15,417 nt of DNA from Candidatus Woesearchaeota archaeon (GTDB lineage: Archaea; Nanobdellota; Nanobdellia; Nanobdellales; CAZNIQ01): assembly GCA_964573185.1 (NCBI GenBank), contig CAZNIQ010000010.1, forward strand, positions 5,765 to 21,181, read 5' to 3'. The translations under genes and the position numbers were made by a program. This document shows positions 583 through 12,551 of the stretch, piece by piece (position 1 is the stretch's first letter; each line of letters opens with the position of its first letter). The notes beneath the pieces are model-generated. The model saw nothing but the letters and a program-made list of their open reading frames with translations, was not told the origin of the DNA and searched no databases.

Positions 583-2223
583 TTATTCGGATTCGAATTC
601 TTCTGATTCTTCACCTCCCTTTCCTTCTTCCTTCTTTTCTTCTTTCTTTGCTGCGGCTATTACATCATCTATCTTTAATATCATTACTGCTGCTTCTGTT
701 GCTGCTTTTATGTATTGTGCATATATGTTTGCCGGCTCTATTACATTTAATTTCCACATATCTTCTACCTTTCCATTAATTACATCTACACCTGCCCATA
801 TCTGACCCTTTTCATGTGCCGCTCTCAATTCTGCCATTATTTCTATAGTATCTAAACCTGCGTTTTCAGCTAAAGCTGCTGGAATTGCTTCTAAAGCGTC
901 TGCAAATGCTAGCATTGCCATTTGTATCTTTGATGGGTGCTTCTTTGCTTCTTCTCTTAACCTTCTAGCTAATTCTACTTCTACAGCACCGCCTCCTGCT
1001 ACTACCTTTCCAGACTTTATAACTGCTGCAACATCTCTTATAGCATCATTTATAGATCTTTCAATTTCGTCTGCTACATGCTCTGATCCTGCTCTTATTA
1101 ATATCGTTACTGCTCTTGGGTTCTTGCAACCCATTACAAATACCATATTTTCATCTGCTACTTTTCTTTCTTCTACTACTTCAGCATATCCTAAATCTTC
1201 TGGTTTCAAATCTTCAATCGAAGTCACTATTTTTGCTCCAGTTGCCTTGGCTAATTTTTCCATATCAGATTTCTTAACCCTCCTTACAGCAAATATTCCA
1301 TACTTTGCTAAGTAGTGAGCAGCTAAATCATCAATTCCTTTTTGACAGAACACTACATTTGCACCAACTTCTTTTAATTTCTCTACCATCTTCTTCAACA
1401 TTTCTTCTTCTTTTCTTAAGAAAGCTTCTAATTGTTCTGGAGATGTTATTTGTATTCTCGCATCTACTTCTGGTTCCTTAACCTCTAAAGCTACATTTAA
1501 CAATGCTATCTTTGCGTTTCTTACTACCTTTGGCATTCCCGGATGTACTCTTTCCTTATCAATTACAACACCATCTATTAATTGTGTATCTTCAACACCA
1601 CCACCTACTTTCTTTTCAATTTTTATTGCATCTAAATCTACAATTATTTTTCCATCTACTTCATATGTTACTTTCCTTACAGCATCTACAACTATTTGTG
1701 CTATTTTTTCAGCAAATAAACCTGCTAACTTTGAAGATAAAGCAGATTTTGCTATTTTCTTTAATGTTTCAATATCATCGATTGAAACTGGCTTTGCTAT
1801 TTTATCTAGTTCTTTTACAACAAATTCTAAAGCTCTTCTGTATCCTTCTATTATTAAAGTAGGATGAATGTTTTGATTTAATAAATCTTCAGCTCTCTTT
1901 AACAATTCTCCAGCTAAAACTACAGATCTTTTAGTACCATCTCCAACTTCTTTATCTTGTGTTTTTGCAACTTCTATAATTAATTTTGCAGCTGGATGCT
2001 CTACTTCCATTTCCTCTAATATTGTTGCACCGTCATTTGTTACAGTAATATCTCCTAATTCGTCTACAAGCATTTTATCCATTCCCCTTGGTCCCAGGGA
2101 TGTCTTTATTGTTTCTGCAATTATTACTGCTGCCATAATATTTGATCTCAACGCATCTCTGCCTGTTGTTCTTGTCCATCCTTCTGGAAGAATCACTACT
2201 GGATATACTGTTCTTGTGGTCAT
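583..2223 (-). CDS. ths: thermosome subunit (group II chaperonin, Cpn60/TCP-1 family)
   Basis: 546 aa with hallmark motifs [45 protein letters not shown] and DEIERS. Acidic C-terminal tail. TATA TTTAAATA (2245-2252, minus) starts 29 nt upstream of the ATG. Confidence 0.97.
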
Positions 2224-2298: not shown

Positions 2299-2754
2299 AT
2301 GGTAAAGTACCAAATTGACGAGATTGTTATAAAAATTCGTGGAAAGAAAACACCCCAACTTTCCATTGATTTCTTTGGAAACGCTATTTATGCTTGGCTG
2401 GGTTCCAAAAGGGATTCTGAAACAGTTAATCTAAAGTATTGTCCTGCTAATGAGAGCGTATGCTATCACTTTGTTAGAGATAAGAATTCGGCGCATTACA
2501 CTCATATAGATTTTACAAAAGAGGAAAATAATGGAAAAGGAAAGTATGTGTTAATACCACATCTATATTTCTCTCATCAAATGGATGATATTGTAAGGTA
2601 CGTAAAAGGAATATTAAAGAGTCAGAAAAGTGGGAGAGTCCCAAATATAGAATCTGAAGAAATAAGGAATTTAATTGAAAAGTTAAATGCTGTAGTCAAA
2701 GAGATAAGAAGAAAACAGGAACAAAGCTTAGATGCTATTGTTTATTTATTTTAA
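2299..2754 (+). CDS. hypothetical protein
   Basis: 151-aa ATG ORF with TATA TTTATATA 30 nt upstream. Its 3' end overlaps the convergent kinase gene by 20 nt. No family recognised. Confidence 0.55.
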   Translation: MVKYQIDEIVIKIRGKKTPQLSIDFFGNAIYAWLGSKRDSETVNLKYCPANESVCYHFVRDKNSAHYTHIDFTKEENNGKGKYVLIPHLYFSHQMDDIVRYVKGILKSQKSGRVPNIESEEIRNLIEKLNAVVKEIRRKQEQSLDAIVYLF

Positions 2755-5082: not shown

Positions 5083-5131
5083 ATGATGACGATCTCCCTG
5101 TCTGACACATGATGAACAGCATTTCAGCTGA
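5083..5131 (+). ncRNA. C/D box sRNA (2'-O-methylation guide)
   Basis: Perfect archaeal architecture. C box AUGAUGA 5083-5089; 12-nt guide CGAUCUCCCUGU; D' CUGA 5102-5105; 3-nt linker; C' AUGAUGA 5109-5115; 12-nt guide ACAGCAUUUCAG; D CUGA 5128-5131. Short UUU/AAA flanking complementarity. Intergenic, with a T-rich TATA-like element near 5053-5063. Confidence 0.85.
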
Positions 5132-5559: not shown

Positions 5560-6736
5560 TCTTAACAGCTTTCCCATCTCTTAATTTTTCTAAAAATCCT
5601 TTAACAGTTTCCAGCTCACAAGAAAACACTCTTCTGTAGAATTCATCGTAATTTTCTTCAAATAAAGCTATTATATATGCTTCATTCCATATTCTCTTAA
5701 ATATGTTTACTCTATTTTTCTTATAAATTAATTCATACATTCTTTTTCTTCCTTCAAAGTATTTTTCATCAGTTTTTTCAATACTTTGATATAAATCTTC
5801 TATTGCTTTTTCCAAAATTTCTTCCTTATCTTTCTCGAATCCAGGGATTTTTAAAGAATAAATGATTTCATCCGGATATACGTATGAAATTTCAAAAGAA
5901 ACTTTATATCCAATTCCATATTTTTCTCTAATTACTTGAAAAGTTAAAGATGATAACCCACCTGAAACTAAATTTTCAAAAGCCTGAACCAGATGTAAAT
6001 CCTCATTAACTCTGAAATTTAATGAATAATAAATTTGATTTTGAGTATTCATATGTATAACAATATCTTTTCCTTTGTCCTTTTTTGGAACTTTCTTTTT
6101 AGGTTTATCTCCTTCTAATCTTGAGAAATATTTCTCTACAAGTTCTACATGTTTTTCATTAAAATTCCCTGAAAGAATAATAAACATATTTTCTGGAACA
6201 TACATCTTTGCTTTATATTCTTCTAAATCTTCTTTGGTTATACTTTCTACTGTTTCTCTATATCCCGCTATAGGATCCCCATAATCGGATTCTCCGTACA
6301 CACTTTTAGGAATTAAATCTTCCATTCTAGATTCAGGGTCGTTTTCGTATCTTTCTATTTCACTTAAAACTACTTTTTTCTCATTCTCAAACTCTTTAAA
6401 ATCGTACTTATCATTTTCAAACATTGAATACAGAATATCTAATACTTTTTCAAAGCCAGAAGGAATTACTTCCACAGCATAGAAAGTTAAGAATGTATCC
6501 GTAAAAGCATTAGCTATACCACCATTTAATTCTAAACCTAAATTTATTTCCCTAGCAGAATATTTCTTATTACTTTTAAACATCATATGCTCTAATAAAT
6601 GGGAGATTCCCCTTTTATCTTTGGGCTCATATATACTTCCGGTTAAAACACCAACTCCTATTCCTATTGTATTTGCTTCTGGTACTGGATCTAAATATAT
6701 CTTTATACCATTTTCAGCAGTGTGCCCTTTCATCAT
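5549..6736 (-). CDS. M16 family (pitrilysin/insulinase-like) zinc peptidase
   Basis: 395 aa. Inverted zinc-binding motif HLLEHMMFK (HxxEH) near the N-terminus and the downstream GGIANAFT region typical of M16. Its 3' end overlaps aIF5A by 11 nt. Confidence 0.85.
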   Translation of the reverse strand: MMKGHTAENGIKIYLDPVPEANTIGIGVGVLTGSIYEPKDKRGISHLLEHMMFKSNKKYSAREINLGLELNGGIANAFTDTFLTFYAVEVIPSGFEKVLDILYSMFENDKYDFKEFENEKKVVLSEIERYENDPESRMEDLIPKSVYGESDYGDPIAGYRETVESITKEDLEEYKAKMYVPENMFIILSGNFNEKHVELVEKYFSRLEGDKPKKKVPKKDKGKDIVIHMNTQNQIYYSLNFRVNEDLHLVQAFENLVSGGLSSLTFQVIREKYGIGYKVSFEISYVYPDEIIYSLKIPGFEKDKEEILEKAIEDLYQSIEKTDEKYFEGRKRMYELIYKKNRVNIFKRIWNEAYIIALFEENYDEFYRRVFSCELETVKGFLEKLRDGKAVKIIP

Positions 6737-6752
6737 AATCTTTATCGTTTTA

Positions 6753-7694
6753 TCATAAAAATCTTAATAAACTAGAGCTTTTAGCCTTTTTAGACAATTC
6801 ATCAGCCAATCTTATTGGTTCGGGATATCTTCCCTTTACCCACGTCTTTTCAGCTAATTCTCTAGAAGTTTCTAAGGATATTTTATGTCCCGGAGAAACA
6901 TAAACTGTATAACCGAATTTTCTTAAGACATACCCGACTATTTCATTATTCAAAATTATTTTGTCATCTATGATTTTTCCAACTAGAAGAGATTTTGTTA
7001 TGCCGATAGTAGGTATATCTAATAAAACTCCAACAAAAGTTGCTAAACCCATTTTAACTGGATGTGCTATTCCGAAACCATTTACAAAAAGGACATCTGG
7101 TTTTGGATCTATTTTATTAAAGTTTTTAACAATAGGAATACCCTCTCTAAAAGCTAGAAACGTTGGAATATATGGAAAATCAATTTCTTCCTCAAAAACA
7201 TAATATTTTATCAATTTTAAATCTTTATTTAATAAAACAAATGTAACTTTTCCTTTATTCCCTTTATAGCTCAAATCTACTCCTCCAATTATCTCTATTT
7301 TATTGAATTTATCTTTAAGAATTATTCTTTCAGTCAATTTTCTTTGAATTTCTCTTAATTTTTCCAAGGGCTTTTCTTTTATATTAAAATCTTTAAACAG
7401 GTATCTTTCTAAATTTATAATTTTATTATTCTTTATTTCCACTCCTTCTTCTAAAAGTTTCTTTCTTTGTTCTTCATCTTTAATTTCACCTTTCTCATTT
7501 ACAACTCGCCACCAATTTTCAAATTTCTTTTCTTTTAAAGTATAATAAACAAACTTTGTTGCAAATTTTGATCCAAGCATTTCAGCTAAAATTTTATAAG
7601 TAGTAACCTTTCCTTTAGGAATTTGTTTTAAAAGCTCTTCTAAGGTTCTGTAAAGATCCCTACCAATTTTATTAATTTCTTCCAATGTCAGCAC
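6753..7694 (-). CDS. nfi: fusion protein: N-terminal alkyltransferase-like (ATL/MGMT DNA-binding) domain + C-terminal endonuclease V-like domain
   Basis: aa 1-90: LKQIPKGKVTTYKILAEMLG ... NWWRVVNEKGEI resembles the MGMT/ATL helix-turn-helix and PCHRV region, with Trp at the Cys position. aa 95-313: EndoV motifs GGVDLSY, FPYIPTFLAFREG, GIAHP, IPTIGITKS, VSPGH and YPEPIRLAD. GTG start codon. Confidence 0.85.
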   Translation of the reverse strand: MLTLEEINKIGRDLYRTLEELLKQIPKGKVTTYKILAEMLGSKFATKFVYYTLKEKKFENWWRVVNEKGEIKDEEQRKKLLEEGVEIKNNKIINLERYLFKDFNIKEKPLEKLREIQRKLTERIILKDKFNKIEIIGGVDLSYKGNKGKVTFVLLNKDLKLIKYYVFEEEIDFPYIPTFLAFREGIPIVKNFNKIDPKPDVLFVNGFGIAHPVKMGLATFVGVLLDIPTIGITKSLLVGKIIDDKIILNNEIVGYVLRKFGYTVYVSPGHKISLETSRELAEKTWVKGRYPEPIRLADELSKKAKSSSLLRFL

Positions 7695-8009: not shown

Positions 8010-8597
8010 ATGGCAAAGTCTTTCTATTGGTATGTTCAACAACTCTGGAAAAGACCAAGAGAATACTTAGGAGATTTATATAAGCAAAGAATCATGCAAT
8101 GGAGAAGAGAACCAGAGATAGTTAGAATTGAAAGACCTACTAGGATAGATAGAGCTAGGAGATTGGGATGGAAACCTATACCGGGAATTGTTTTAGTTAG
8201 AGTAAGAGTAAGAAGAAGAGGTGCAACAAAGAAAGAGGATAATAATAAGGGAAGAAGACCAAAGGCAAATTATAGATATAGATATTTAGGTAAATCTTTG
8301 CAATGGATTGCTGAAGAAAAAGCTGCAAGAAAATATCCTGGTTTAGAAGTCCTAGCTTCCTATTGGGTTGGTGAAGATGGAGAATATGCTTGGTATGAGG
8401 TTATACTAGTAGATCCTGCAAATCCAAATGTACAAGCAAGACCGGAATATGCTTGGTTATTACAGAAGGCTCAAAGAGGTAGAGTATTTAGAGGTTTAAC
8501 ACCTGCAGGAAGGAAATCTAGAGGTTTATTAAATAGAGGAAAAGGAGCTGAAAAAGTAAGACCTTCCTTAAGAGCAAACGATAACAAAGCTAAATAA
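8010..8597 (+). CDS. rpl15e: 50S ribosomal protein eL15 (L15e)
   Basis: 195 aa. N-terminus YWYVQQLWKRPREYLGDLYKQRIMQWRREPEIVRIERPTRIDRARRLGWK and the basic core are characteristic of L15e. Confidence 0.95.
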   Translation: MAKSFYWYVQQLWKRPREYLGDLYKQRIMQWRREPEIVRIERPTRIDRARRLGWKPIPGIVLVRVRVRRRGATKKEDNNKGRRPKANYRYRYLGKSLQWIAEEKAARKYPGLEVLASYWVGEDGEYAWYEVILVDPANPNVQARPEYAWLLQKAQRGRVFRGLTPAGRKSRGLLNRGKGAEKVRPSLRANDNKAK

Positions 8598-8647
8598 GCA
8601 TTATTTTAATTTTTCTTAAAAAACAGCTTTAAGAATATAAAATTGTT

Positions 8648-8720
8648 TGTGCCCCGCCTAGCGACACCCTGGTTCATCGATCCCCTTCGGGGTTCTCACC
8701 GGGCTCAGTTCTAGGCGGGG
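8648..8720 (-). ncRNA. H/ACA-type guide sRNA hairpin (candidate pseudouridylation guide)
   Basis: Read on the minus strand. 10-bp lower stem CCCCGCCUAG (8720-8711) / CUAGGCGGGG (8661-8652). Internal pocket AACUGAG (8710-8704) / UGUCG (8666-8662). Upper stem CCCGGU (8703-8698) / ACC(A)GGG (8673-8667). Canonical K-turn: 3-nt bulge GAU 8678-8676; sheared pairs G8675.A8696 and A8674.G8697; closing C8679-G8695. Apical CCCC-GAA-GGGG. ACA at 8650-8648, 1 nt after the stem, then a T-run. GC-rich island in AT-rich DNA. Confidence 0.5.
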
Positions 8721-8722
8721 TG

Positions 8723-8774
8723 TCAGGACCTCCGGCAATCATCATACTCAGACACACCGGGTTTTCGTCATCCT
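8723..8774 (-). ncRNA. C/D box sRNA (imperfect C box, long first spacer)
   Basis: Read on the minus strand. C-like AGGAUGA 8774-8768; 16-nt spacer; D' CUGA 8751-8748; 2-nt linker; perfect C' AUGAUGA 8745-8739; 12-nt guide UUGCCGGAGGUC; D CUGA 8726-8723. Palindromic TATA TTTATAAA (8794-8801) sits 27-29 nt upstream of the C box. Confidence 0.6.
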
Positions 8775-8778
8775 AGAA

Positions 8779-8786
8779 TTTTTAAT
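8779..8786 (+). promoter_or_regulatory. TATA box of nurA-herA
   Basis: TTTTTAAT starts 29 nt upstream of ATG 8808. Confidence 0.45.
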
Positions 8787-8793
8787 CCTTAAA

Positions 8794-8801
8794 TTTATAA
8801 A
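8794..8801 (-). promoter_or_regulatory. TATA box of the minus-strand C/D + H/ACA sRNA locus
   Basis: Palindromic TTTATAAA. On the minus strand it starts at 8801, 27-29 nt upstream of the C-like box (8774-8768). Confidence 0.45.
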
Positions 8802-8807
8802 AGAGCT

Positions 8808-9854
8808 ATGCTTAATGCTGAAGATATAAAGAACATCGAAAAAATGATAAGGATAGTTGGGAAAAATTTGGAAACTAAAAATTTCAAATTATTAATAAAG
8901 GAGATGCTAGAGGAGGGAAATAAAGAACTCTCTTTAGTTGCTGAAGATTCTGGATTTATTGTAGGAAATCTTGGAGGATTTTCATATATTTTTGTGAGAA
9001 CATTCGTAATTAATGATAAAGGAAAAAAGTTCTCTAAATCAAAATTTTATTTATTGCCTTATGCTTTCTTTGAAGGAAAAAGAATTGATGATTTAGCGGA
9101 TATAATTTCCAGAACAATAGAATACTTTTTAACATTAGAATTTATTAAAAAAGAAAAACCGGATGTTGTATTAATTGATGGGAGCTTAATATCTGATTTA
9201 ATTCAAGCAGCAGTAATGCTAAGTTTATTTAAGAAAGAGAACTATTTTGATACCTTTGTAGAATTTTTAAACCAATATTCCAACTATTTAGATATAGAAG
9301 AAATAGATTATGCATTATTAGAAGATTTACCTAAAATTTTTATCACCTTTTATATAAAAACATTGAGAGATTTCTTGCAATATGTAAAAGATAATAATAT
9401 TCTTGTTTTCTATTTTATTAAGAGACCTGTAGATTCTAAAAGACTAGCTGAAAAGATAGCACCTGATTTATCAAGAAAATTCAACGATTATTTATTATTA
9501 AATATTGTTTTCAGAAATAAAGCTTTTGTAACAGATTTATACAAGCAAGAATTAGAGGGACAAGCTATAAGGCAACTCTTTATAGATATTTTAGAAAACT
9601 ATTATTTTGTTTATTTTAGAAAAGTTCCGAATGGGCATATTTATAGAATAGAGATTCCCGCATTTTATAATGAAAATGAAATAAAAGAAAGCATTTTTAG
9701 CATCTTAAATAAATATTCAGACGTACAAGGTTATCCAAGATTATTGTTACTAGCTCATAAATTATGTAATGTTAGTCTAAAAGATAAGAAAATAATAGAA
9801 AGACTTTTAATCTCAAAGTTAAAAGATTTTGTTGTACCTGAAGCGACAAGATGA
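8808..9854 (+). CDS. nurA: NurA-family 5'-3' nuclease
   Basis: 348 aa with NurA-like acidic motifs (LVAEDSGF, VVLIDGSL). Translationally coupled (ATGA overlap at 9851-9854) to a HerA helicase gene, the canonical partner. The family call rests on motif recollection plus context. Confidence 0.72.
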   Translation: MLNAEDIKNIEKMIRIVGKNLETKNFKLLIKEMLEEGNKELSLVAEDSGFIVGNLGGFSYIFVRTFVINDKGKKFSKSKFYLLPYAFFEGKRIDDLADIISRTIEYFLTLEFIKKEKPDVVLIDGSLISDLIQAAVMLSLFKKENYFDTFVEFLNQYSNYLDIEEIDYALLEDLPKIFITFYIKTLRDFLQYVKDNNILVFYFIKRPVDSKRLAEKIAPDLSRKFNDYLLLNIVFRNKAFVTDLYKQELEGQAIRQLFIDILENYYFVYFRKVPNGHIYRIEIPAFYNENEIKESIFSILNKYSDVQGYPRLLLLAHKLCNVSLKDKKIIERLLISKLKDFVVPEATR

Positions 9855-11491
9855 AGATCGGAATAATTGTTGGATCAACGGATATCTCAAAATTCAATGT
9901 AGCTATAGATCCATCTAAATATAAAAATGTCAAGATAGGTAGTATCGTAAAATTTGAAGTAGACGGCAAGGAGGCCTATGGTATTATTACAAATATTACA
10001 ATTAAAAGTACAAATCCTTTAGATATAGCATCCGAATACTCTTCCTTAGAATTGTTTGTACAAAAATTAAAAGGTGTAGAGCAATTAATATTAGCAGAGG
10101 TAAAAGTTTTAGGTGTATTAGATGAGAAAAAAAGATTTAGGAAGTTAGATTTCCCTCCTTTGCCTGGGACAGATGTATTCTTAGCTTCTGAAGAAGAAAT
10201 AAAGGAAATATATGGTATTTCAGAAGAAAAATGGAAATATATAACCGTTGGAAAAATCCTTGGTGGATACTCAATTGAACCCGCTCTAGATAAAAGGGAA
10301 ATAATTATAAAGCATTTAGCAGTATTTGGAGTTACAGGATCTGGAAAATCACATACTATAGCCGTATTAACTTCAAAGCTTTTAGAACATGGAATACCAG
10401 TTGTAATTTTTGATGTACATAGGGATTATATACCAACATTTAAAGATCCTATAATAATTACATTTGACGAAAGAGAAAAAAGATATTTAGAAAGATTCCA
10501 TAAAGATAGAAGAGGGGATTCAAATCCTAAGATAGAGATTGTCAAATTAAAGTTATATGAGATAGCATCTTATCTACCGGATATCTTAGGAATCTCTCCT
10601 CAAGCACATCCATATTTGTATCTCCTATTAGATGCTGCTCTAAAGAACAAGCCAGTGTCATTAGCAGATTTAAAAGAAACTATTAAAGATAAAAGAAAAA
10701 TTTTAGGACAATTAAGAAAAGAATTTGTAGATCCTAGGATGCTAGAAGAGTTAGATAAAAAATTTGATTCTGCAAGAGCTAGCTTAATTACTAGATTACA
10801 TAGATTGGAGAAATGGAAGATAGTACCACAAAGTGTTAAAGAGGGGCAATACTTATCAATAGATGATATAATTAAATTAAAAGAAAGTGAAGAAATTCTT
10901 GAGGTTGAAGGTGAAGCTATTGAAGCTTCTGAAGGTTTTATAGAAAAAGGAAAACCATTAATAGTAGATTTATTCCCATTGAGTCTTGAAGAACAGAGAG
11001 TTTTAATTGATATATTTCTAAATAAGTTGTTCGAATACTGGAAAGAGTTGAAGAAGGAAAATAGGCATATTCCAATAGTAATTGTAATAGAGGAAGCTCA
11101 CAGGTTTGCTGCAAAGGATGTTAAAGTGTCAAAGATGCTAGGTACTATTGCTAGAGAGGGTAGAAAATTTGGAATAGGATTATGGCTAGTATCCCAGATC
11201 CCATCAAAGATATCCGAAGATATAATATCTCAAATAAATACTTTTATTTTCTTAAGATTAACGAATCCAAAAGATCTAACTTTTATTAGAAAATCCTGTC
11301 CATACTTATCTGAAGAATATCTGGAAACTATAACTAAATTCGATAGAGGAGAAGCTTTAATAGTTGGTTTAGGCGTTAGACAACCTGTCTTAGTTAAAAT
11401 AGAGGAAAGAGCTATAATTGGAGGATCTGAAAAAGAGATAGAAGATAAACTAAAAGAATTATATGAGAGTAGTAGTAATAGGGGCGGGTAG
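9851..11491 (+). CDS. herA: HerA-family hexameric DNA helicase/translocase (FtsK-HerA superfamily ATPase)
   Basis: 546 aa. N-terminal HAS-barrel-like region (IGIIVGSTD...GSIVKFEVDGKEAYGIITNI), Walker A FGVTGSGKSHT, Walker B PIVIVIEEAHRF, and the AREGRKFGIGLWLVSQIPSKI motif. Confidence 0.9.
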   Translation: MKIGIIVGSTDISKFNVAIDPSKYKNVKIGSIVKFEVDGKEAYGIITNITIKSTNPLDIASEYSSLELFVQKLKGVEQLILAEVKVLGVLDEKKRFRKLDFPPLPGTDVFLASEEEIKEIYGISEEKWKYITVGKILGGYSIEPALDKREIIIKHLAVFGVTGSGKSHTIAVLTSKLLEHGIPVVIFDVHRDYIPTFKDPIIITFDEREKRYLERFHKDRRGDSNPKIEIVKLKLYEIASYLPDILGISPQAHPYLYLLLDAALKNKPVSLADLKETIKDKRKILGQLRKEFVDPRMLEELDKKFDSARASLITRLHRLEKWKIVPQSVKEGQYLSIDDIIKLKESEEILEVEGEAIEASEGFIEKGKPLIVDLFPLSLEEQRVLIDIFLNKLFEYWKELKKENRHIPIVIVIEEAHRFAAKDVKVSKMLGTIAREGRKFGIGLWLVSQIPSKISEDIISQINTFIFLRLTNPKDLTFIRKSCPYLSEEYLETITKFDRGEALIVGLGVRQPVLVKIEERAIIGGSEKEIEDKLKELYESSSNRGG

Positions 11492-12551
11492 ATCCGGTTT
11501 ATATACTTCCATTTTATTATCAGATTATTTCGATGTAGTTGTTTATGAGAAAGAAAAATATGTTGGAAAAAAGAAAGGAACGGATATAGTAAGTACTAAT
11601 ATTTTAAAGTTCATTAAACTAAAGAAAAAAGCTATTAAAAATAAAATATATGGAGCTATCTTTAAACATAAAGGTAAAGAGATATTAATCAAAAGAAAAA
11701 GAATTGTTGCTTTAGTTTTGGATCATAAAGGATTTGAAGAATATTTACTAGATTTAGCAGAGAAAAGAGGAGTTTTAGTTAAATTTGGTTATAGGTTCGT
11801 TAAAGGTTCGTTAACTCAGTTAACTTTTAAAGAAGGTTCAAAGGTTTTAACCGAAGTTAACTGGGATATTCTTGTAGGAGCAGACGGTGTAAATTCTTTA
11901 GTAGCAAGAAATTATAGCTTTTACAAGGCTCAAAAAGTTATATTTGGATATGATTTTTTAGTTAAGGGTAATTTCGAAAAGAAATATGTTATTCTAGAAT
12001 TAAATCCGGAATATTTCTATTGGATTGTTCCGGAAAATGAAGAATACGCAAGAGTTGGATTTCTTTTTGAAAATGTTAAATTGCATAAAATATTAAAGAA
12101 GAAGTTTGAGAGGAAAATATTGGTTAATTATAAAGTTGTTAATTGGATTTTTAGACCAATTCCAATCTATGATAATTATAGGTGGCAAAAAGGAAAGGTT
12201 TATTTAATAGGTGATGCTGCTGGAATGGTTAAGAGATTAACAGGTGGCGGTACTATTCCTAGTTTTTGGGGGGCAAATTTACTATTAAAATCAATCCTAA
12301 AGAAAGAACCTTTTGACAAAGTAGGACGTCCATTAAAAATGTACTTAAACTACCACAATCTTCTCTACGATTTTATAAAACATCTTTCTATTTCAACAAA
12401 ATTTAAAATTTTAAAATATGGAAAATTATTTTTTGAAATACTAGGAGATATGGATACTGTATGGGGCCGTGGCCCAGCCTGGCTAGGGCGCCGGCCTGGG
12501 GCGCCGGAGGTCCCGGGTTCAAATCCCGGCGGCCCCATAGTTAATCAATAG
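11463..12551 (+). CDS. FAD-dependent oxidoreductase, geranylgeranyl reductase family
   Basis: N-terminal Rossmann motif VVVIGAGRSGL, GADGVNSLVAR and GDAAGMVKRLTGGGT motifs. The last 29 codons (12462-12548) are the in-frame translation of the tRNA-Pro gene, so the true 3' end is uncertain. Overlaps herA by 29 nt. Confidence 0.78.
   Translation: MRVVVIGAGRSGLYTSILLSDYFDVVVYEKEKYVGKKKGTDIVSTNILKFIKLKKKAIKNKIYGAIFKHKGKEILIKRKRIVALVLDHKGFEEYLLDLAEKRGVLVKFGYRFVKGSLTQLTFKEGSKVLTEVNWDILVGADGVNSLVARNYSFYKAQKVIFGYDFLVKGNFEKKYVILELNPEYFYWIVPENEEYARVGFLFENVKLHKILKKKFERKILVNYKVVNWIFRPIPIYDNYRWQKGKVYLIGDAAGMVKRLTGGGTIPSFWGANLLLKSILKKEPFDKVGRPLKMYLNYHNLLYDFIKHLSISTKFKILKYGKLFFEILGDMDTVWGRGPAWLGRRPGAPEVPGSNPGGPIVNQ
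12463..12537 (+). tRNA. tRNA-Pro (anticodon GGG)
   Basis: 75-nt cloverleaf read by hand. Acceptor GGGGCCG/CGGCCCC; D arm GCCC-AGCCUGGCUA-GGGC; anticodon arm CCGGC-CUGGGGC-GCCGG (GGG at 34-36, G37); variable loop AGGUC; T arm CCGGG-UUCAAAU-CCCGG; discriminator A. No encoded CCA and no intron. Strongly GC-rich against the AT-rich background. Confidence 0.95.

Follow-up and report, generated by a model that had tools for sequence, protein, structure and literature searches.

Composite small Cajal body-specific RNAs (scaRNAs) of eukaryotes, such as U85, carry methylation and pseudouridylation guide domains in one RNA. In their H/ACA domains two hairpins are combined with H and ACA boxes and with Cajal-body signals, and their targets are the small nuclear RNAs. 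To our knowledge, the H/ACA part of these RNAs has no L7Ae-type kink-turn (K-turn). In archaea, RNAs that join the two guide systems are rare but documented. Pab21/Pf1-snoR9 of Pyrococcus (RF00065) is one transcript with H/ACA and C/D motifs, and Northern blots reveal forms with and without the C/D part. Here we describe a locus in a 15,417-nt stretch of archaeal DNA (the window; positions 5,765-21,181 of the forward strand of contig CAZNIQ010000010.1, assembly GCA_964573185.1). The locus is very probably one minus-strand transcription unit that encodes two RNA-modification guides in tandem, a C/D module followed by an H/ACA module. An earlier note on this DNA (the first-pass annotation) called such an architecture unusual for archaea, which is overstated in view of Pab21/Pf1-snoR9. 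The gene is real and conserved; composite archaeal guide RNAs are already known, and what is new is the reversed order of the modules, the lineage and the 2-nt linker. We know of no archaeal fused guide RNA with the order C/D then H/ACA, nor is one described in the literature consulted.

The guide RNAs of Nanoarchaeum equitans provide a second point of reference. Its small RNA (sRNA) genes end in T-stretches. Dicistronic precursors of a transfer RNA (tRNA) and a C/D sRNA are known in this species, so guide RNAs of the clade are readily co-transcribed with other RNAs. The C/D RNA sRNA16 has the D guide AUGCCAGAGGCU, with a predicted target at 23S-1903 of the ribosomal RNA (rRNA), AGCCU(m)CCGGCAA (Randau 2012, PMC3491384). 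Among the N. equitans sRNAs detected by RNA sequencing, AUGAAGA and GUGAAGA occur as box C and AUGACGA as box C' (Randau 2012, PMC3491384).

The minus strand of the window from 8775 to 8645 reads as a full C/D box sRNA, the linker CA and an archaeal H/ACA hairpin with a K-turn, an ACA box and a T-run. The 5' module is (U)AGG-AUGACGA-AAACCCGGUGUGU-CUGA-GU-AUGAUGA-UUGCCGGAGGUC-CUGA-CA. The 3' module is CCCCGCCUAG-AACUGAG-CCCGGU-GA-GAACCCC-GAA-GGGGAUC-GAU-GA-ACC(A)GGG-UGUCG-CUAGGCGGGG-C-ACA-AACAAUUUU. All elements of the two-module anatomy were found where the first-pass annotation had placed them. The island is flanked by two plus-strand genes, L15e (8010-8597) and NurA (8808-9854). The same order of L15e, island and NurA-HerA occurs in a related genome (L082; NCBI GCA_054017035.1), whose contig is syntenic with the window. 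The L15e protein is 97% identical to that of L082; the next named relative is N. equitans NEQ181 (69%), and the Thermococci are at about 60-61%. The source organism is recognisable as an AT-rich (31% GC) relative of Nanoarchaeum and is presumably thermophilic, so its structured RNAs stand out as GC islands. The locus had been described as the only GC-rich non-tRNA island of the window, which is essentially right, but a less GC-rich canonical C/D sRNA at 5083-5131 (+) had been overlooked.

The C/D module spans the first 51 nt and has a complete set of C, D', C' and D boxes. Box C is AUGACGA (8765-8771; AUGAAGA in L082). It is followed by the D' guide AAACCCGGUGUGU of 13 nt (8752-8764), box D' CUGA (8748-8751), box C' AUGAUGA (8739-8745), the D guide UUGCCGGAGGUC of 12 nt (8727-8738), box D CUGA (8723-8726) and the 2-nt linker CA (8721-8722). 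Boxes D, D' and C' are perfect, and the spacing is 12 nt from C' to D and 13 nt from C to D'. The first-pass annotation had instead read box C as AGGAUGA (8768-8774), which gives a 16-nt spacer. This register is probably shifted by 3 nt. AUGACGA is chosen by both Rfam C/D models (sR20 and snoPyro_CD), and since the models and the box variants of N. equitans all fit a box C at 8771-8765, AUGACGA is the more likely box. The general features of an archaeal box C/D sRNA are present for the C/D boxes as well as for the D'/C' boxes with their guides. A regular-expression descriptor of these boxes and spacings found no match when the window was dinucleotide-shuffled 500 times or the island shuffled 20,000 times.

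The H/ACA hairpin follows at 8652-8720. Its structure is reproduced by the minimum free energy (MFE) fold, at -38.6 kcal/mol and z = -4.5 for the minus strand. A lower stem of 10 bp (8720-8711 with 8661-8652) leads into a pocket of 7 + 5 nt (8710-8704 and 8666-8662) and an upper stem of 6 bp (8703-8698 with 8673-8667). The 6 bp had been noted before, but the bulged A8670 within this stem had not. The K-turn (8674-8697) consists of GA (8697-8696), a C-stem with a GAA loop (8695-8679), the 3-nt bulge GAU (8678-8676) and GA (8675-8674); the C-stem is closed by a C-G pair and the GA dinucleotides form tandem sheared G.A/A.G pairs. The ACA box (8648-8650) lies 1 nt past the stem. Motifs of the L7Ae-type K-turn can be recognised in both modules, as the first-pass annotation had proposed.

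The hairpin was compared with the H/ACA rules of Toffano-Nioche et al. and Muller et al., which set the pocket at 5-11 nt per strand and the ACA or ANA at 14-16 nt. The hairpin is within the published ranges for the lower stem, the size of the pocket, the apical K-turn and the distance of the ACA. The ACA is 16 nt from the pocket-closing pair C8703-G8667, or 15 nt if G8704.U8666 pairs as in the MFE fold. In productive Pyrococcus guides the ACA is 14-15 nt from the pocket and the GA stem has 10 stacked layers, in a natural range of 8-11 layers (Toffano-Nioche et al.).

The last A of box D and the CA linker (8721-8723, minus strand) together spell an ACA that abuts the 5' side of the hairpin. 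This is the type of junction that lies between the hairpins of multi-hairpin archaeal H/ACA RNAs, and the Rfam HgcG alignment puts it on the ACA that precedes the last hairpin of HgcG. Because the junction is identical to that of multi-hairpin RNAs, and is so used by the alignment, the hairpin may once have been located downstream of another H/ACA hairpin.

A single promoter appears to serve both modules, as had been suggested. The end of the TATA box TTTATAAA (8794-8801, minus strand) is 19 nt upstream of AGGAUGA and 22 nt upstream of AUGACGA. Several genes of the window have a TATA 8-mer whose end lies 21-22 nt upstream of the start codon, which is the leaderless-mRNA pattern. Because the spacing of the sRNA TATA matches that of these genes, transcription is predicted to start at about 8774-8771. 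The T-run TTTT (8639-8642, minus strand) follows the ACA and is the likely terminator; archaea are well known to terminate transcription at oligo-T stretches. The end of the ACA and the L15e stop codon are 2 nt apart in L082. With a gap of 2 nt, box D and the hairpin leave no room for an internal promoter, and on this arrangement co-transcription of the two modules is therefore close to certain. NurA has a TATA of its own (TTTTTAAT, 8781-8788), which is conserved and located 22 nt before the NurA ATG, at leaderless spacing. The two divergent promoters, with their TATA boxes, are interleaved within 35 bp, the sRNA TATA being 7 nt from the NurA ATG and the NurA TATA 7-10 nt from the predicted sRNA start.

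The island is 90% identical between the window and L082 over 131 nt, compared with 60-76% at the third codon positions of its flanking genes. Boxes D', C' and D, six of the seven box C positions, the CA linker, the G.A pairs, the C-G closing pair, both main stems, the ACA and the distance to the TATA are invariant, and TTTATA is kept at the same spacing. The orthologous intergenic region therefore has the boxes, K-turn and ACA whose absence would have spoken against the first-pass annotation. In the C/D part, the 13 differences include position 5 of box C, the third nucleotide from D' (U to A, the one change in the D' guide), the D'-C' spacer and the guide base that adjoins box D. Within the hairpin they affect two positions of the 5' pocket strand and the C-stem of the K-turn, where A-U becomes G.U and A.A becomes G.A. 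The remaining changes are in the apical loop (GAA to GAG), the bulge (GAU to UAU), the spacer before the ACA (C to U) and the 3' tail.

At gathering thresholds, Rfam reports tRNA alone over the window. With E-value reporting the five best matches are all to guide RNA families on the minus strand. These are HgcG/Pab40 (RF00064; 31.1 bits, gathering 77, E = 6e-7), of which only the last hairpin aligns, sR20 (25.4 bits, gathering 44, E = 0.003; E = 0.002 for the L082 island), HgcE/Pab105 (E = 0.018), snoPyro_CD (21.1 bits, gathering 45, E = 0.05) and PyrR206 (E = 0.2). The scores for sR20 and snoPyro_CD exclude these Pyrococcus-specific families, not the C/D class. The RNA is likewise not a member of the three-hairpin HgcG/Pab40 family. 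RF00065 gives no match at E <= 10, and by module order and similarity the RNA falls outside that family as well.

Further copies were sought in several collections. None was found in the L15e neighbourhoods of 80 GTDB genomes, where the best L15e match was 61% (Thermococci), and 20 L15e loci scanned with Rfam gave no guide RNA match at gathering score. A covariance model built from the window and L082 copies (R1) returned nothing from 312 kb of archaeal L15e loci and 48 kb of nanoarchaeal loci apart from one weak match, the known N. equitans sRNA8. No sRNA is located beside L15e in the nanoarchaeal relatives L092 (N. equitans), L093, L096, L097 and L098. A scan of JGI metagenomes for ATGATGANNGCCGGAGGNNCTGA gave seven matches, which were set aside as all are the same conserved site inside apparent protein-coding sequence. 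Viral contigs gave no sRNA match, and the 23S-target pattern gave chance matches in non-rRNA context.

A target site can be proposed for the D guide. The guide UUGCCGGAGGUC is complementary to (G)ACCUCCGGCAA, and with the N. equitans 23S-1903 site AGCCUCCGGCAA it forms 10 Watson-Crick pairs and 1 G.U without internal mismatch. The pairing is better than that of sRNA16 itself, and the U selected is the one predicted for sRNA16. In archaeal C/D sRNAs the nucleotide to be modified faces the fifth position upstream of box D or D'. The first-pass annotation had suggested a search for complementary sites, and for this guide the N. equitans 23S-1903 site listed for sRNA16 supplies a candidate. The window tRNA-Pro was also considered as a D-guide target and rejected. 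The string GCCGGAGGUC is shared by the guide (8727-8736, minus strand) and the tRNA (12503-12512, plus strand), an identity of 10 nt that grows to 11 nt when the first base of box D is included. Because the match is same-sense and not antisense, the two are not a guide-target pair, and the identity is probably a coincidence between GC-rich RNAs.

These features suggest the following course of events. The archaeal RNA polymerase would start at about 8774-8771 by way of the TATA at 8801-8794 and end at the T-run, giving a primary transcript of about 130 nt. L7Ae would bind at three kinks, two in the C/D part (the C/D K-turn and the C'/D' K-loop) and one at the apex of the hairpin (a K-turn). The first 51 nt would be the site of Nop5-fibrillarin assembly. 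The D guide is predicted to pair with 23S ...CCUCCGGCAA, the equivalent of N. equitans 23S-1903, where fibrillarin would 2'-O-methylate the U opposite A8731, and the D' guide would direct a second methylation. Cbf5-Nop10-Gar1 would assemble on the hairpin, with the lower stem and the ACA as anchors. The pocket, whose strands are AACUGA(G) on the 5' side and (U)GUCG on the 3' side, would position a U for pseudouridylation. By analogy with Pab21/snoR9, the fused RNA and trimmed single-module forms are both to be expected, each module acting as an independent ribonucleoprotein (RNP). A more specific proposal is that the mature form is a stable RNA of about 128 nt with both functions, with C/D and H/ACA RNPs 2 nt apart in the order C/D to H/ACA, and that it arose independently of Pab21/snoR9 in a reduced-genome nanoarchaeal lineage. 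We regard this as a fair possibility that falls somewhat short of probable. Such an RNA could link the methylation of one 23S site to the pseudouridylation of a neighbouring one.

The transcript may instead be a dicistronic precursor that is always cut at or near the CA linker, yielding two RNAs, a C/D sRNA (about 51 nt, perhaps circular) and an H/ACA sRNA (about 75 nt), with a fused form that has no function. This is credible, and we lean towards doubting it. Archaeal C/D sRNAs are often processed from longer transcripts, including the dicistronic tRNA-sRNA precursors of N. equitans. Moreover, the probable ortholog of the C/D half, sRNA16, occurs alone in N. equitans without a downstream hairpin, and Pab21 also occurs without its C/D part. 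However, Pab21 accumulates in the fused form too, and multi-hairpin archaeal H/ACA RNAs stay joined even though ACA alone separates their hairpins. The invariant 2-nt linker would also leave almost no room for cleavage between modules covered by protein.

Several points weigh against the reading of the locus as a tandem of two functional guides. The transcript and its mature products are predicted from sequence. All Rfam scores are far under the gathering thresholds. Box C has one deviation from RUGAUGA, at position 5, and the C/D module has no terminal stem. The GA stem of the hairpin comprises 8 pairs and the bulged A, that is, 9 layers, or 10 if G8704.U8666 forms and the bulge is stacked; the 10-layer form is plausible but unproven. 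Two of the seven bases of the 5' pocket differ between the genomes. Of the 22 base pairs, 21 are invariant and one changes from A-U to G.U; two sequences give no covariation, so the support for the structure comes from thermodynamics, from its motifs and from its likeness to known families.

The remaining points concern targets. The D' guide has no counterpart among N. equitans guides. Its expected target string is AC(A/U)CACCGGGUUU, in which the third base would differ between the two genomes along with the guide, and the pocket is predicted to act on 5'-CGACA-UN-CUCA...-3', or on 5'-CGAC-UN-UCA...-3' in the G.U register. The 16S and 23S of H. marismortui and the partial 16S of L098 were searched, as were the window, L082, L092 and L093 on both strands, including their tRNA genes. 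In none of these sequences was there a convincing site for the D' guide or for either pocket register. The D' and H/ACA targets proposed in the first-pass annotation were thus not recovered from these rRNAs. A variable region of the H. marismortui 23S contains CGAC-UC-UCAC, which fits the pocket weakly and is not used as evidence. The supplements of Muller 2008 and Toffano-Nioche 2015 contain no matching target strings. These negative results are weak, because rRNA of this lineage was not among the sequences searched and the N. equitans 23S lay outside their scope.

Three of these points would also fit a degenerate or orphan hairpin, H/ACA-like in form, that serves as a stable L7Ae-bound 3' end and protects the C/D sRNA or helps to assemble it. 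They are the missing pocket target in the rRNA searched, the 5' pocket that differs at 2 of 7 bases while the stems are invariant, and a GA stem whose length is optimal only under extra assumptions. We consider this explanation unlikely. The ACA at 15-16 nt, the 10-bp lower stem, the invariant 3' pocket strand and the UGAG (the four 5' pocket bases adjoining the upper stem, invariant in L082) fit Cbf5-dependent guiding exactly, and a mere stabilising hairpin would not require such features. The missing target also counts for little here, since the sequences searched did not include rRNA of this lineage. It is most improbable that the structure acts on the plus strand, as a terminator or 3' untranslated region of L15e or as a leader element of NurA: this strand folds stably as well (hairpin z = -3.75) and the island sits between two plus-strand genes, but the boxes, sheared G.A pairs, ACA, TATA and T-run make sense on the minus strand only, the strand on which the first-pass annotation had read them, the G.U pair of L082 would be an A.C mismatch on the plus strand, the Rfam scan gave no confident plus-strand family match (E = 0.89-4.1, at chance level), and NurA has its own leaderless promoter.

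Other features were noticed in the window and its relatives. The second canonical C/D box sRNA at 5083-5131 (+), found in L082 at 2320-2368 (+), has the layout AUGAUGA, 12 nt, CUGA, CAC, AUGAUGA, 12 nt, CUGA, with the guides CGAUCUCCCUGU and ACAGCAUUUCAG. It is located just upstream of the TATA of the IF5A gene, and its two differences in L082 are both in the D'-C' spacer. Its guides have no match among N. equitans sRNA guides. The tRNA-Pro(GGG) gene at 12463-12537 (+) lies wholly inside the 3' end of an open reading frame (ORF) for a FAD-binding domain (11463-12551), and in L082 tRNA-Pro(GGG) (9643-9719) is likewise inside an ORF (8644-9753). The ORF is probably over-called through the GC-rich tRNA-Pro gene, or else the genes truly overlap. 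NurA has only two members in a collection of 5.8 billion proteins, the window's protein and that of L082. They are 54% identical, compared with 97% for L15e, and the nucleotide identity of HerA (9851-11491) is 89% and 97% at codon positions 1 and 2. By this comparison NurA evolves unusually fast relative to its operon partner HerA. The L098 contig, whose L15e is 63% identical, ends in a partial 16S rRNA at 5839-7032 (-), about 3 kb from L15e. It also has a match resembling signal recognition particle RNA at 1569-1740 (-), abutting a tRNA (38 bits, gathering 40).

The two modules of the tandem guide gene have separate counterparts in other archaea. The 3' half of the C/D module is very likely orthologous to N. 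equitans sRNA16. The C' box AUGAUGA is common to both, 9 of 12 D-guide positions are shared (AUGCCAGAGGCU and UUGCCGGAGGUC), and the two guides are aimed at the same 23S site AGCCUCCGGCAA. Box C of sRNA16, GUGAAGA, has the same A for U at position 5 as AUGAAGA of L082. However, sRNA16 stands alone, and the 40 nt that follow it are rich in A and T and contain no hairpin. The D' guide of sRNA16 (16S-1158) bears no relation to that of the window gene, and its box D reads CAGA.

The hairpin is collinear with hairpin 2 of the two-hairpin H/ACA sRNA of N. equitans, with which it shares the K-turn GAGAA...UCGAUGA, and with the last hairpin of Pab40/HgcG. In all three, an ACA is followed by a lower stem of about 10 bp, a pocket, a 6-bp upper stem and the K-turn, and then by a pocket strand beginning with UGU, the lower stem, 1 nt and the ACA. 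The pocket sequences of hairpin 2 and HgcG differ from that of the window hairpin, and its target is accordingly expected to be a different one. The upstream partner also differs: it is a C/D sRNA in the window and another H/ACA hairpin in the N. equitans RNA and HgcG. As N. equitans has one H/ACA RNA, the gene adds to a very small catalogue for the Nanoarchaeum clade.

The likeness to the eukaryotic composite scaRNAs appears to be functional only, with no sign of common descent. Pab21/snoR9 is a closer parallel. Like the window gene, it has a single-hairpin H/ACA guide and a C/D guide side by side on one transcript, and both of its modules bind L7Ae, as is predicted for those described here. 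Pab21/snoR9 has the H/ACA module 5' and the C/D module 3' and belongs to the Thermococcales, whereas the window gene has the C/D module 5' and the H/ACA module 3' and belongs to a relative of the nanoarchaea. The opposite order, the lack of a match to RF00065, the different lineage, and the closest sequenced relative, which keeps the C/D half separate, are most simply explained by an independent fusion event. The wider impact is modest because the principle of such fusions is already documented. The 2-nt gap nevertheless provides a natural test of how tightly C/D and H/ACA RNPs can pack on one RNA, and the gene one of how archaeal guide RNAs are excised from their precursors. Set beside Pab21/snoR9, it would be a second and apparently independent archaeal gene that fuses both guide systems, with the modules in the opposite order, which would suggest that such fusions have originated repeatedly and are tolerated by both RNP machineries.

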